From: a virus
Taxonomy: Duplodnaviria; Heunggongvirae; Uroviricota; Caudoviricetes
DNA: 20,639 nt
IMG/VR virus record: IMGVR_UViG_2713896773_000003
Location: 1 to 20,639 of that record
Reading direction: 5' to 3' (one strand)
Part shown: positions 3,753 through 6,310 of the stretch, in pieces
How the letters are laid out: each line of letters opens with the position of its first letter
Position numbering within the stretch: position 1 is the first letter of the stretch
Notes under the pieces: generated by a model
What the model saw: the letters and a program-made list of their open reading frames with translations, nothing else
The model's database searches: none
Told to the model about the DNA's origin: nothing
Translations under genes and position numbers: made by a program

Positions 3753-3865
3753 ACCACACCGACTTCCTCCGGTACCAGGCCGAAAGCGTTAAGCGCGCCT
3801 ACCTGCCGCCAGTAGCAAAGCACAGCCAGACCAAAACCCACCAGCCACAGAAGGAAGCCGCATAA
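3749..3865 (+). CDS. Possible very small ORF (38 aa) coupled between the HNH gene and the Q-like gene
   Basis: ATG 3749 overlaps the HNH stop (ATGA); its stop TAA 3863-3865 overlaps ATG 3865 of the next gene (TAATG). No motif recognised. The overlaps suggest translational coupling, but such a short ORF could be chance. Confidence 0.3.
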   Translation: MNHTDFLRYQAESVKRAYLPPVAKHSQTKTHQPQKEAA

Positions 3866-4674
3866 TGAACCTCGAATCAATCGCTAAATACTTTGCGCCT
3901 AAATCACCGATGTTCAGTGACTCTCCTCGCGCAACCGCATCAGACAGTCTCACCGGCACTGACGTTATGGCGGCGCTTGGCCTTGCTGGCCACAAGTGCG
4001 GGTTTGGTTTCGATCTTTACCTCTCGAAAATCGGCATTAGCAGCCCAGATATAGCACTGGAGAGACTCTATGAGCAGGCACGTAAGTTATCAGGTAAATT
4101 CAGAGCACTGTCTGAACTCGATGAATCAGCTCGGTCAGGCGTGCTTAAGGTTCTCTGCGCTTTTGCATACCAGGATTATTCAAGAAGTGCTGCCAGCACT
4201 CGAAAATGTGATTGCTGTGATGGTGGCGGATTTACAGAGGCGCAAGTGTTTACCAACAAGGTCTCATACCCATGGGGGAAACCGCCTTACTGGTCGAAAA
4301 TGTCGCGTGCCGTTCGCCCAAGCGACTGGGAGAGCTGGACACAGGCGCGTGAGGTGGTGCGAGTTAAGTGCAAGCCGTGTAACGGAAAAGGCGTTATCAG
4401 CAATTCGTGTCGCTGCCATGGCAAAGGTAAGGTGCTGGACAAGGCAGAAAGCGATCGCCAGGGCGTTCCAGTAATGAAAGCCTGCGACCGCTGCGGTGGT
4501 AGAGGTTACGCCAGGCTTAAGTTCTCAACGGTAATTGAGGGCGTTAATACTGTTGCGGAGATAAAGAAAACGGCGGCATATGAGCAACTTCAGCCGCTAT
4601 TTGAGGAGTTGGTCGCCGAATGCCATAAACAGGAGTCTATGGCTGATTCCATTCTCTCAAAAGTAACGAGATGA
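3865..4674 (+). CDS. Putative late-gene antitermination protein Q-like, with four CxxCxGxG zinc-finger-like repeats
   Basis: Last gene before a long non-coding region containing promoter and terminators and the lysis cassette, which is the canonical Q position. Repeats CDCCDGGG, CKPCNGKG, CRCHGKG and CDRCGGRG suggest zinc binding. Family assignment is by position and from memory that some Q-type antiterminators are zinc-binding. Confidence 0.55.
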   Translation: MNLESIAKYFAPKSPMFSDSPRATASDSLTGTDVMAALGLAGHKCGFGFDLYLSKIGISSPDIALERLYEQARKLSGKFRALSELDESARSGVLKVLCAFAYQDYSRSAASTRKCDCCDGGGFTEAQVFTNKVSYPWGKPPYWSKMSRAVRPSDWESWTQAREVVRVKCKPCNGKGVISNSCRCHGKGKVLDKAESDRQGVPVMKACDRCGGRGYARLKFSTVIEGVNTVAEIKKTAAYEQLQPLFEELVAECHKQESMADSILSKVTR

Positions 4675-4716
4675 AAATAATTTTCCCTAATGTTGAAAAT
4701 ATATAGGAAATAGGTA

Positions 4717-4745
4717 TTGCATTTCGCGGAAAAACTGGATAGATT
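4717..4745 (+). promoter_or_regulatory. Candidate sigma70 late promoter (PR'-like): -35 TTGCAT, 17-bp spacer, -10 TAGATT
   Basis: TTGCAT at 4717-4722 and TAGATT at 4740-4745 with exactly 17 bp between, 40 bp downstream of the Q-like stop and about 50 bp upstream of the first terminator hairpin. This geometry fits a short PR'-to-tR' leader on which Q would act. Confidence 0.4.
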
Positions 4746-4796
4746 CATCTCTAACGCTGGGAATCCGTTCAGTCGTTCCGAAGCCAAAAAAATTCA

Positions 4797-4826
4797 AGCC
4801 CGAGGTTAACGCCTTGGGCTTTTTTT
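4797..4826 (+). terminator. Rho-independent terminator (tR'-like)
   Basis: Stem AGCCCGAGG (4797-4805) / CCTTGGGCT (4812-4820): 9 bp with one G-U pair, loop TTAACG, followed by a run of T at 4820-4826. Confidence 0.6.
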
Positions 4827-5088
4827 ATTTCTTTGTGGCCTAAATCGCTTCGAGCCAAAAAAACGCGGAGAACGACATCACCCCTCTCCGCAATAACGAC
4901 TCAATCTCATACCCGCTTGTCTTTCTTTTATCCACAAAGAGGTAAAGCCATAACTTAGTGGAAATGGTAACAGCTAAAAACTATTTGAAAAGCTAATTAT
5001 TTTTTGCATCAACTGGCTATTCTTAAGGATTGTTTAATTTTTTGCTTTCCTAGCGAGAAAGAAGCTCCGGAAACTATCAATCAATACA

Positions 5089-5113
5089 AGGCTGCCGTTC
5101 GGCGGCCTTTTTT
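5089..5113 (+). terminator. Second rho-independent terminator upstream of the lysis genes
   Basis: Stem AGGCTGCC (5089-5096) / GGCGGCCT (5101-5108): 8 bp with one G-U pair, loop GTTC, T-run 5108-5113. It sits 40 bp before the holin start. Confidence 0.6.
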
Positions 5114-5152
5114 ATTCCTAGCAACAGCACTCGCACAAAGCGAGGTGAGAGT

Positions 5153-5377
5153 ATGTATCGCATGGACAAACTAACCACTGGTGCTGCCTATGGCGCTTCA
5201 GCCGGGAGCATCCTAAACGGCATGTTGAATGCCTACAGCCCCGAGCAGTGGAACGCTATCGGCGTGCTGGTGGGTATCATCATTGCCGTAATGACGTATC
5301 TGACAAATCTCTATTTCAAAATCCGCGAAGACAACCGCCGCAGCAGGAGCCGAGATGAACCCAACGTTGAGGAATAA
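5153..5377 (+). CDS. S: Class II holin, phage-21 S-like pinholin, with dual start (Met1 and Met4)
   Basis: GAGGTGAGAG upstream. N-terminus MYRMDK gives two in-frame starts differing by a positive charge, the holin/antiholin arrangement. Two TM segments. C-terminus [17 protein letters not shown] matches my memory of phage 21 S ([14 protein letters not shown]). 3' end overlaps the endolysin start. Confidence 0.85.
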
Positions 5378-5849
5378 GCTGGTGGGTGCCATTGTTGGCG
5401 GATCAGGGGCAATCACTATTGCTGCAGTAATGCTGGGCAATGCGGATGGACTCGAAGGTCGGCGTTATTACGCCTATCAGGATGTGGTCGGCGTCTGGAC
5501 CGTTTGCGATGGGCACACTGGTACCGACATTCGCCGCGGTCACCGATATACCGACAAAGAGTGTGACAACCTGCTTAAGGCAGATCTGCGAAAGGTGGCA
5601 AGCGCCATCGACCCGCTGATCAAGGTTCGCATCCCTGAGCCAACCCGCGCCGCGCTTTACTCCTTCACCTATAACGTTGGCTCTGGTGCTTTTGCCAGCT
5701 CGACGCTGCTGAAGAAGCTGAACTCCGGTGATGTTCCGGGTGCGTGTAAAGAACTGCAGCGCTGGACTTATGCTGGCGGCAAGCAGTGGAAGGGGCTGAT
5801 CACCCGGCGCGAGATTGAGCGTGAAGTCTGCGAGTGGGGCCAGAAATGA
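5355..5849 (+). CDS. R: SAR endolysin (T4-lysozyme-like muramidase with N-terminal signal-anchor-release domain), phage-21 R-like
   Basis: Glycine and alanine-rich weakly hydrophobic N-terminus [20 protein letters not shown] (SAR domain). Catalytic E-x8-D-x5-T arrangement in [17 protein letters not shown]. Conserved [26 protein letters not shown] tail. Overlaps holin 3' end and Rz start. Confidence 0.9.
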
Positions 5850-6310
5850 GCCGATTAACCGCAATCATCTGCGCTGTCGTTATCTGCCTGCTGGTTTCCA
5901 TGGCCTGGGCCATTAACCACTACCGCGACAACGCCATCACCTACAAAGACCAGCGCGATAAAGCCACAAAGAACCTCCGCCTGGCTAATGCCACCATCAA
6001 AGATATGCAGACCCGCCAGCGTGATGTCGCTGCACTGGATGCCAAATACACGAAGGAATTGTCCGATGCGAAAAAGACCATTAACGATTTGCGTCGTGAT
6101 GTCGATTCTGGCGCTAAACGGCTGCGCATCGCCGCAACCTGCCCTGGAGTGCCAAAAGCCACCTCCTCCACCGGCGTGGATGATGCAGGAGCCCCCGAAC
6201 TTACTCCAGACGCTCGACGGAATTATTTCGATCACCGGGACGGAATCGCAACCGCTGACAAAATGATTCGCGGCATGCAGGACTACATCAAAGAGCAGTG
6301 TCTTAAGTGA
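5846..6310 (+). CDS. Rz: Rz i-spanin (inner-membrane spanin subunit)
   Basis: ATG 5846 overlaps the endolysin stop (ATGA); the track start at 5834 is an upstream GTG. N-terminal TM helix [20 protein letters not shown] followed by a charged coiled-coil periplasmic domain. Rz1 is embedded in the +1 frame. Confidence 0.8.
6066..6266 (+). CDS. Rz1: Rz1 o-spanin (outer-membrane lipoprotein), fully embedded in Rz in another frame
   Basis: Within track ORF 5988..6266. ATG 6066 is preceded by AAGGAA. Signal peptide with lipobox LALNGC, then the proline-rich stretch [14 protein letters not shown], nearly identical to the lambda Rz1 motif [14 protein letters not shown] as I recall it. 66 aa. Confidence 0.8.

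Follow-up and report, generated by a model that had tools for sequence, protein, structure and literature searches.

A conserved pre-holin cassette with a probable antisense RNA gene in the late control region of a phi80-like prophage

Genes and Features of the Q-S Gap

The window, as we use the term here, is the whole stretch of viral DNA that was analysed (20,639 nucleotides (nt); IMG/VR record IMGVR_UViG_2713896773_000003, positions 1 to 20,639), and our subject is the gap of 478 base pairs (bp; positions 4,675 to 5,152) between its late antiterminator gene, Q, and its holin gene, S. Much of this Q-S gap is occupied by a conserved, unannotated non-coding sequence of 300 bp that runs up to the holin start codon, and which we call the pre-holin cassette. 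The cassette, which probably contains a small RNA (sRNA) gene antisense to the late operon, is what appears to be new at this locus; it overlaps a late-control region of familiar type. The features are listed with their coordinates in Table 1.

The order of the genes around the gap is NinG, HNH endonuclease, lambda-type Q, class II holin, lysozyme and Rz. A preliminary description of this DNA, made from the sequence without database searches, had taken the gap for a Q-to-S late control region that lacks a transfer RNA (tRNA), and both statements hold: Q, with its PF03589 domain, is upstream, the holin, lysozyme and Rz genes are downstream, and ARAGORN finds no tRNA in the window. The counterpart of Q in the phi80 record is labelled late transcription antitermination protein. 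The open reading frame for the HNH endonuclease (PF01844, 3111-3752) lies between NinG and Q, where phi80 has a Lar-family gene. The holin gene opens with the codons ATG TAT CGC ATG (5153-5164), an S21-type dual-start motif with Met1 at 5153 and Met4 at 5162, which implies that the gene would give both holin and antiholin forms.

Around the Q-S gap, the window is nearly identical to phage phi80. Over 601 bases, identity is 99.8% both to the phi80 sequence (GenBank JX871397) and to the phi80 remnant in the Escherichia coli strains DH5alpha, DH10B, TOP10 and JM83, and two E. coli genomes carry prophages that are 100% identical over the same bases. The stretch between the two terminators of the gap (4827-5152) is 100% identical in the four strains. 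Because identity to phi80 (98.4%) is confined to window positions 3865-6141, we consider the window to be a phi80-like mosaic prophage and not phi80 itself.

A search of positions 4400-5400 against Rfam, on both strands, gives nothing at the gathering score. The phi80 GenBank record has no RNA annotated in the Q-S gap, and the sole non-coding RNA in the record is M3 RNA. We rejected M3 as an occupant of the gap, since in the record it is the oop homologue, at 36229-36288 of the minus strand. M3 is the RNA that Bothwell, Stark and Altman reportedly described in 1976 as a substrate of RNase P.

Table 1. Features in and around the Q-S gap (window coordinates)
Feature	Position	Strand	Basis
Late antiterminator gene Q (phi80 gene 17 type, 269 amino acids)	3865..4674	+	Pfam PF03589 Antiterm, E = 1.3e-34
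pR' late promoter: -35 TTGCAT (4717-4722), -10 TAGATT (4740-4745)	4717..4745	+	phi80 annotation; alignments with lambda pR' and the Gifsy-1 isrJ promoter
gp17 (Q) binding site, between -35 and -10	4724-4730	+	phi80 GenBank JX871397 annotation mapped onto the window
Inferred transcription start	~4752-4753	+	lambda pR' alignment
-10-like element AACGCT-GGG	4753-4761	+	Counterpart of lambda AACGAT-GGG by alignment; sequence presence only
tR', first intrinsic terminator (hairpin 4796-4821, T-run 4822-4828)	4796..4828	+	Terminator scan; phi80 annotates 4798-4826
Left arm of 9-bp stem	4830..4838	+	Outside the conserved cassette; in no conserved element
Pre-holin cassette, conserved, non-coding	4852..5151		~20 distinct variants, 80-95% identity, sharp ends
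Proposed terminator/Hfq-type module: UUAUU (4896-4892), hairpin (4891-4865), U-tract (4863-4857)	4857..4896	-	Invariance, energy asymmetry
Near-invariant A/G-rich block, UUUGUGGAUAAAAGAAAGACAA in minus sense; candidate single-stranded seed/Hfq contact	4918..4939	-	Alignments
Candidate extended -10, TGnTAYYAT (TGTTAYYAT; TGTTACCAT)	4972-4964	-	~100 nt upstream of the module in minus sense
Weak candidate promoter: -35 4975-4980, -10 TATTTT 4998-5003	4975..5003	+	Matrix scan
Invariant block CTTAAGGATTGTTTAAT	5022..5038	+	Alignments; AGGA can pair with UCCU 5048-5051
Second intrinsic terminator of the late leader (hairpin 5088-5109, T-run 5108-5113)	5088..5113	+	Scan; phi80 annotates 5090-5113
Shine-Dalgarno hairpin, 5128-5134 with 5140-5147	5128..5151	+	Directly before the start codons
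Class II (S21-type) holin gene	5153..5377	+	Pfam PF04971, E = 5.4e-25; phrog_20 holin

The Pre-Holin Cassette

Variants of the cassette were gathered by three viral scans, one genome scan and one metagenome scan, which gave one divergent, decayed copy (L028); all other variants share 80-95% identity. Similarity to PHB10, the sole related phage in the phage collection, begins abruptly at 4852, and the right end always (in ~20 variants) lies directly at the holin start codon. Three unrelated holins follow the cassette, namely PF04971 (S21 type), phrog_1350 and PF05106 (lambda S type). Its upstream neighbours fall into three contexts: a tR' of the phi80 type, the Rfam sRNA STnc100 some 100 nt away, and other DNA. 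The cassette is of interest as an unannotated sequence that is unevenly conserved and that stands before holins of three families.

The conservation is patchy. At 4865-4896, 31 of 32 positions never vary, next to freely varying stretches, and further invariant runs occur at 4926-4938, at 5022-5038 (with one variable site, 5031) and at 5140-5151. For comparison, column shuffles give longest invariant runs with a median length of 9 and a 99th percentile of 16. Consensus folding of either strand gives local hairpins only, with a covariation term of -1.1 kcal/mol. Open reading frames of at least 20 amino acids are present on both strands of the cassette region, but small proteins were rejected as an explanation, as insertions and deletions of 1 nt and blocks without synonymous variation argue against coding. 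We also rejected homology of the cassette to lambda, Gifsy-1, Klebsiella phages and the Pas loci of enteropathogenic E. coli (EPEC), with which it shares the second terminator and the last 40-50 nt only, and membership in a known RNA family, since none is matched at the gathering score and the matches to trpB, Phe-leader and similar models are terminator look-alikes.

Some individual occurrences of the cassette are worth describing. STnc100 (62-74 bits) lies ~100 nt 5' of the cassette in PHB10-type phages (L003 2195-2400, L021, L025, L005 and L024); it is on the holin strand, and would thus converge with the antisense RNA proposed below. Contig JBOBHQ010000010 (Bacterium BS0013) carries two variants, L022 and L023 (95% and 88% identity), before different holins, which suggests two prophages. 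One variant shares its viral contig with a transfer-messenger RNA gene (L008 573-936; 288 bits), which suggests a prophage integrated at ssrA. In Klebsiella phage ST13-OXA48phi12.5 (L002 1732-1977), a close relative in Q and tR', genes for tRNA-Asn and tRNA-Ser replace the cassette, and only the last ~28 nt before the holin start are retained.

A Predicted Antisense RNA on the Minus Strand

On the plus strand, an invariant run of six to seven A residues stands before the hairpin at 4865-4891 and an invariant AATAA after it, so that the minus strand reads UUAUU, hairpin, U6-7. This order is the layout of an intrinsic terminator, and also that of the module by which sRNAs bind Hfq. The hairpin is more stable in the minus sense (-13.0 to -13.9 kcal/mol) than in the plus sense (-9.7 to -10.2 kcal/mol), a gap of 3-4 kcal/mol, and both plus-strand terminators of the Q-S gap have the opposite asymmetry. 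The flanks and the energies of the hairpin point to a function on the opposite strand. In the candidate extended -10 element upstream of the module, all 21 sequences, the divergent L028 among them, keep the TG and the hexamer positions T1, A2, A5 and T6, and positions 3 and 4 of the hexamer alone vary. The A/G-rich block UUUGUGGAUAAAAGAAAGACAA contains the invariant run 4926-4938, and no conserved structure covers 4918-4939.

From these elements, we propose that the left third of the cassette most likely encodes an RNA of ~100 nt, antisense to the late operon. Transcription would begin at about 4956-4959 from the extended -10 and finish near 4858 at the module of U-rich stretch, hairpin and poly-U, and the RNA would contain the UUUGUGGAUAAAAGAAAGACAA stretch together with a variable linker. 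By analogy with PasA/PasC and AsxR/AgvB (see below), it may be made in lysogens and may act by Hfq-type base-pairing on host or phage messenger RNAs (mRNAs). As a perfect complement of the late leader, it could also bind, 5' of the holin gene, to late transcripts that arise by leakage.

Several observations weigh against this interpretation. The extended -10 has a matrix score of 8.9, which is within the range of shuffled sequences, and the -35 region is not conserved. The hairpin never varies, and therefore offers no covariation by which its strand could be assigned; an invariant loop is also unusual for a plain terminator. The changes in L028, a decayed prophage with a frameshifted lysozyme gene, give a G-U pair in the plus sense but an A-C mismatch in the minus sense, and weaken the U-tract. 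The family is shallow (80-95% identity), and some of its conservation may reflect recent spread. The predicted RNA has no homology to PasA, PasB, PasC or PasD1, nor to an Rfam family.

With these points included, we give slightly better than an even chance to the overall explanation, a known late-control unit followed by a cassette with a predicted antisense RNA. The more specific statement, that the hairpin at 4865-4891 belongs to a cassette which phages exchange by recombination as one unit, joined to the holin start codon, and which holds a predicted antisense RNA gene of ~100 nt, has an even chance or slightly less. A fuller proposal would make the cassette a mobile regulatory unit with an undescribed antisense sRNA gene that has no sequence relationship with the Pas and anti-sRNA families. 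Lysogens would produce its RNA, which would regulate mRNAs of the host or the phage via Hfq and act as a brake on leaky holin expression; this is on the unlikely side. If it were true, an RNA-based control would be carried along by the lysis cassettes of several holin families. DH5alpha, DH10B, TOP10 and JM83 contain the exact sequence, and the prediction can thus be checked cheaply in existing strand-specific RNA sequencing data; if confirmed, it would mean that an unnoticed prophage RNA is expressed in standard cloning hosts.

Comparison with Pas and Anti-sRNA Genes

The position of the cassette is one in which sRNA genes have been found before. Prophages of enterohaemorrhagic E. coli have sRNA genes downstream of pR', some of them antisense to the late transcript (Tree et al. 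2014, PMC4104026). In EPEC, PasA (85 nt) and PasC have been validated by Northern blot and depend on Hfq for their stability (PMC8550237), and both are antisense and adjoin the holin/lysozyme operon (bioRxiv 10.64898/2026.05.13.724894). The candidate in the cassette shares its location, the interval from pR' to the holin gene, with PasA/PasC and with AsxR/AgvB, the anti-sRNAs of enterohaemorrhagic E. coli prophages. PasA, PasC and AsxR are oriented antisense to the late operon, whereas for the phi80 candidate this orientation is inferred from the asymmetry of the terminator.

The PasA locus is the closest parallel in layout and size, being intergenic, next to the holin/lysozyme operon and provided with an intrinsic terminator. 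In strain E2348/69 (L039 743395-743725), ~298 nt separate the PasA terminator from the ATG of the holin gene, and a plus-strand terminator lies ~55 nt 5' of this ATG; in the window, the proposed antisense terminator is 296 nt from the holin ATG. At the level of sequence, a profile hidden Markov model of the cassette finds nothing at E < 0.1 in the PasA, PasB, PasC and PasD1 loci of E2348/69, and pairwise alignment of the cassette with the PasA locus gives a shared layout only. As homology is not detectable, we consider the cassette and PasA to have the same layout, and not to be members of one family. The terminators also differ in arrangement, since those of the phi80 cassette form an outward-facing pair, whereas the pairs described by Tree et al. 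(PMC4104026) are convergent.

Plus-Sense Elements of the Cassette

The right part of the cassette contains two elements with a clear plus-sense signature. In the second terminator, 96% of alignment cells pair, with changes to U-G, U-A and C-G at one pair and to G-U at three others. The single-sided changes keep the pairing, through G-U wobble, in the plus sense only, and the hairpin is also more stable in the plus sense (-15.3 kcal/mol) than in the minus sense (-11.3 kcal/mol).

The second element is a hairpin that would sequester the holin's Shine-Dalgarno (SD) sequence, GAGGTGAGAG (5142-5151; GAGG), and that precedes the dual-start motifs MYRM and MKM. Here 99% of cells pair among 17 distinct sequences, with one change, from C-G to U-G. 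A hairpin before a dual-start holin gene is an arrangement known for lambda S (the sdi stem-loop) and for phage 21 S. The window resembles these in having Met-x-x-Met or Met-Lys-Met together with a conserved hairpin over the SD sequence; a role like that of sdi is proposed for the window's hairpin from its position. This end of the gap also touches a published RacR binding probe, which spans -235 to +7 of the lysozyme gene (PMC6715736) and corresponds to window positions ~5120-5361; its overlap with the Q-S gap is limited to the last ~30 nt.

Further to the left, the AGGA of the invariant block CTTAAGGATTGTTTAAT forms a helix with UCCU that is paired in 97% of cells and is almost invariant. 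The weak candidate promoter at 4975-5003 scores 10-13 bits in L003, L014, L021 and L035, and has a poor -35 in the window.

Alternative Explanations

The preliminary description had proposed a different RNA, a small RNA or leader structure at 4830-4940 in which a 9-bp stem, formed by TCTTTGTGG (4830-4838) and CCACAAAGA (4932-4940), encloses the 7-bp hairpin GCGGAGA (4865-4871)/TCTCCGC (4885-4891). All its coordinates and sequences are correct: the two arms are perfectly complementary, the inner hairpin pairs as described, and positions 4828-4942 take the predicted fold when this single sequence is folded (-26.4 kcal/mol, z = -3.2). The fold is not conserved, however. When the region is shuffled by a first-order Markov model, 32% of the shuffles contain a perfect inverted repeat of at least 9 bp within 150 nt, and the outer stem is therefore at chance level. 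Its left arm lies outside the conserved block, and among 19 distinct homologues the outer helix is paired in 42% of cells, with 0 compensatory changes, whereas the inner hairpin is paired in 100% and is invariant. In L010 and L030, close relatives with the same upstream flank, the stem is broken. On the grounds of chance level and lack of conservation, we reject the long-range 4830/4940 stem, and a structured RNA closed by it is very improbable; the inner hairpin stands, as part of the cassette.

The other alternatives accept the cassette and differ in what it does. It might act in the plus sense only, as the 5' leader of the Q-antiterminated late mRNA, with no antisense RNA made and with the invariant hairpin and blocks serving as sites for RNA processing, stability or protein binding that set holin expression. 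The constant fusion of the cassette to the holin start fits this idea, as do the plus-sense character of the second terminator and the SD hairpin, the better retention of the 4865-4891 hairpin in the plus sense in L028, and the invariance of its loop, which suggests sequence-specific recognition. RNAalifold also gives a possible long-range pairing of UCUUUCUU with GAGAAAGA in the plus sense, but this pairing shows no covariation and two breaks. In a leader of this kind, the invariant A-run on the 5' side of the hairpin and the AAUAA on its 3' side have no known plus-sense role. The plus-sense form of the hairpin is the weaker one and has a loop of 13 nt, and the consensus fold has the small covariation term given above, with a compensatory change at one pair only. 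We consider a leader without an antisense RNA unlikely. A plus-strand sRNA gene, instead of or in addition to the antisense one, is distinctly unlikely. It would use the promoter at ~4975-5003 to make an RNA of ~100 nt (~5010-5113) with the second terminator as its 3' end and the invariant CUUAAGGAUUGUUUAAU near its 5' end. Several relatives do have a good -35 and -10 (10-13 bits) at the same alignment position, with the invariant block just downstream, positions 5008-5116 fold with z = -2.3 (z = -4.8 for the alignment), and Gifsy-1 IsrI sits directly 5' of a near-identical terminator. These points are offset by the -35, which is poor (TAAAAA) in the window and in half of the variants, by a 1-nt deletion in one variant that removes the TA of the -10, and by the folding signal, which comes mostly from the terminator and is accompanied by no Rfam match above threshold.

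Finally, the only functional parts of the cassette may be the second terminator and the ribosome-binding region of the holin gene, the conservation of the cassette being the result of recent horizontal spread through recombination at gene boundaries. Such an origin would agree with the shallowness of the family and its single divergent copy, with an overall divergence similar to that of the neighbouring genes, and with a longest invariant run (17) that column shuffles place no higher than about the 99th percentile. It accords poorly with variation as strongly patterned as that around 4865-4896, with the persistence of the same blocks in the decayed copy L028, and with a left boundary that coincides with the end of a terminator-like element, and we regard it as quite improbable.

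The Late-Control Unit

Upstream of the cassette, and extending into it, is the machinery of late transcription. The promoter of the preliminary description is present as described, with a 17-nt spacer, and a terminator consensus scan, which finds three terminator-like sites against 1.3 expected, recovers both of the terminators claimed there (4796-4828 and 5088-5113). The tR' hairpin has an energy of -17.6 kcal/mol in the plus sense and -12.4 kcal/mol in the antisense direction, and is followed by seven T residues. Both terminators, like the promoter and the Q site, are already annotated in phi80, and this part of the gap appears to be textbook Q antitermination, with nothing new. In a sigma-70 matrix, pR' scores 10.7 bits, near the median of the best hits in shuffled sequences (10.2 bits). 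On this basis, the promoter would not be remarkable from its sequence, and it is homology, together with the phi80 annotation, that identifies it.

When lambda pR' is aligned with the window, TTGACT corresponds to TTGCAT, TAAATT to TAGATT and AACGAT-GGG to AACGCT-GGG, position by position. In lambda, AACGAT-GGG induces a sigma-dependent pause, at which Q loads. By this model, transcription from pR' in the window would start at ~4752, and polymerase would pause at the -10-like element, where Q bound at 4724-4730 could load. Without Q, transcription would stop at tR' and release an RNA of about 72-76 nt. Read-through would be caught by the second terminator, which is followed by the SD hairpin and the dual-start holin gene. 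We consider this late-control part, from pR', Q and tR' to the second terminator and the SD hairpin before the holin gene, near certain.

The likeness to the lambda pR'-qut-tR' region extends to the whole arrangement. In both, a Q of the same Pfam family is encoded directly upstream, the Q site (in the window, the one annotated in phi80) lies between -35 and -10, AACGNT-GGG follows the start, and an intrinsic terminator is succeeded by a second hairpin with a T-run before the holin gene. In lambda (L043 ~632-670), this second hairpin is GC-rich and lies ~120 nt 5' of S, parallel to the second terminator of the window. The two systems differ in the length of the terminated pR' RNA, which would be ~75 nt in the phi80-like window versus 194 nt in lambda, in the Q-binding sequence, and in the leader between tR' and the holin gene, which shows no similarity between them.

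The Terminated pR' RNA and IsrJ

Short RNAs regulated by antitermination are made by phi80, lambda, 21, 82 and P22 (Sy et al. 2020, PMC7547250). The ~75-nt pR' RNA of the window would be the phi80 counterpart of lambda 6S RNA and of StxS, and a distant homologue of IsrJ. StxS of Stx phages is, like the pR' RNA, a short product of an antiterminated promoter of the late type (PMC7547250). For IsrJ, the Rfam model isrJ (RF01393) matches 4744-4822 over its full length with 23.8 bits (E = 0.011), below the gathering threshold of 37; on Gifsy-1 itself, the same model gives 100 bits. By Rfam's rule, the pR' RNA is not a member of the isrJ family.

Direct alignment brings the two closer together. Gifsy-1 isrJ aligns with the window in its promoter (TTGCAA, 17 nt, TATATT), in a TCAxTCGT motif, in CCAAAxAAATTCAAGCC and in a terminator at the same place. 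The genetic positions differ, as isrJ follows anrP in Gifsy-1 and the pR' RNA comes directly after Q in the window. We take the RNA between pR' and tR' to be a distant relative of the Salmonella Gifsy-1 sRNA IsrJ. The phi80 pR' RNA and IsrJ appear to be the same kind of molecule, and their likeness supports the view that prophage sRNAs arise recurrently from terminated transcripts of late promoters.

Gifsy-1 is itself rich in RNAs at this locus. Between antQ and the holin gene (L037 1474-3028), it carries isrK, a C4-type antisense RNA with a1/b1 targets, isrJ, tRNA-Arg and isrI, and isrI is followed by a terminator that shares 96% identity over 28 nt with the second terminator of the window (5089-5116).

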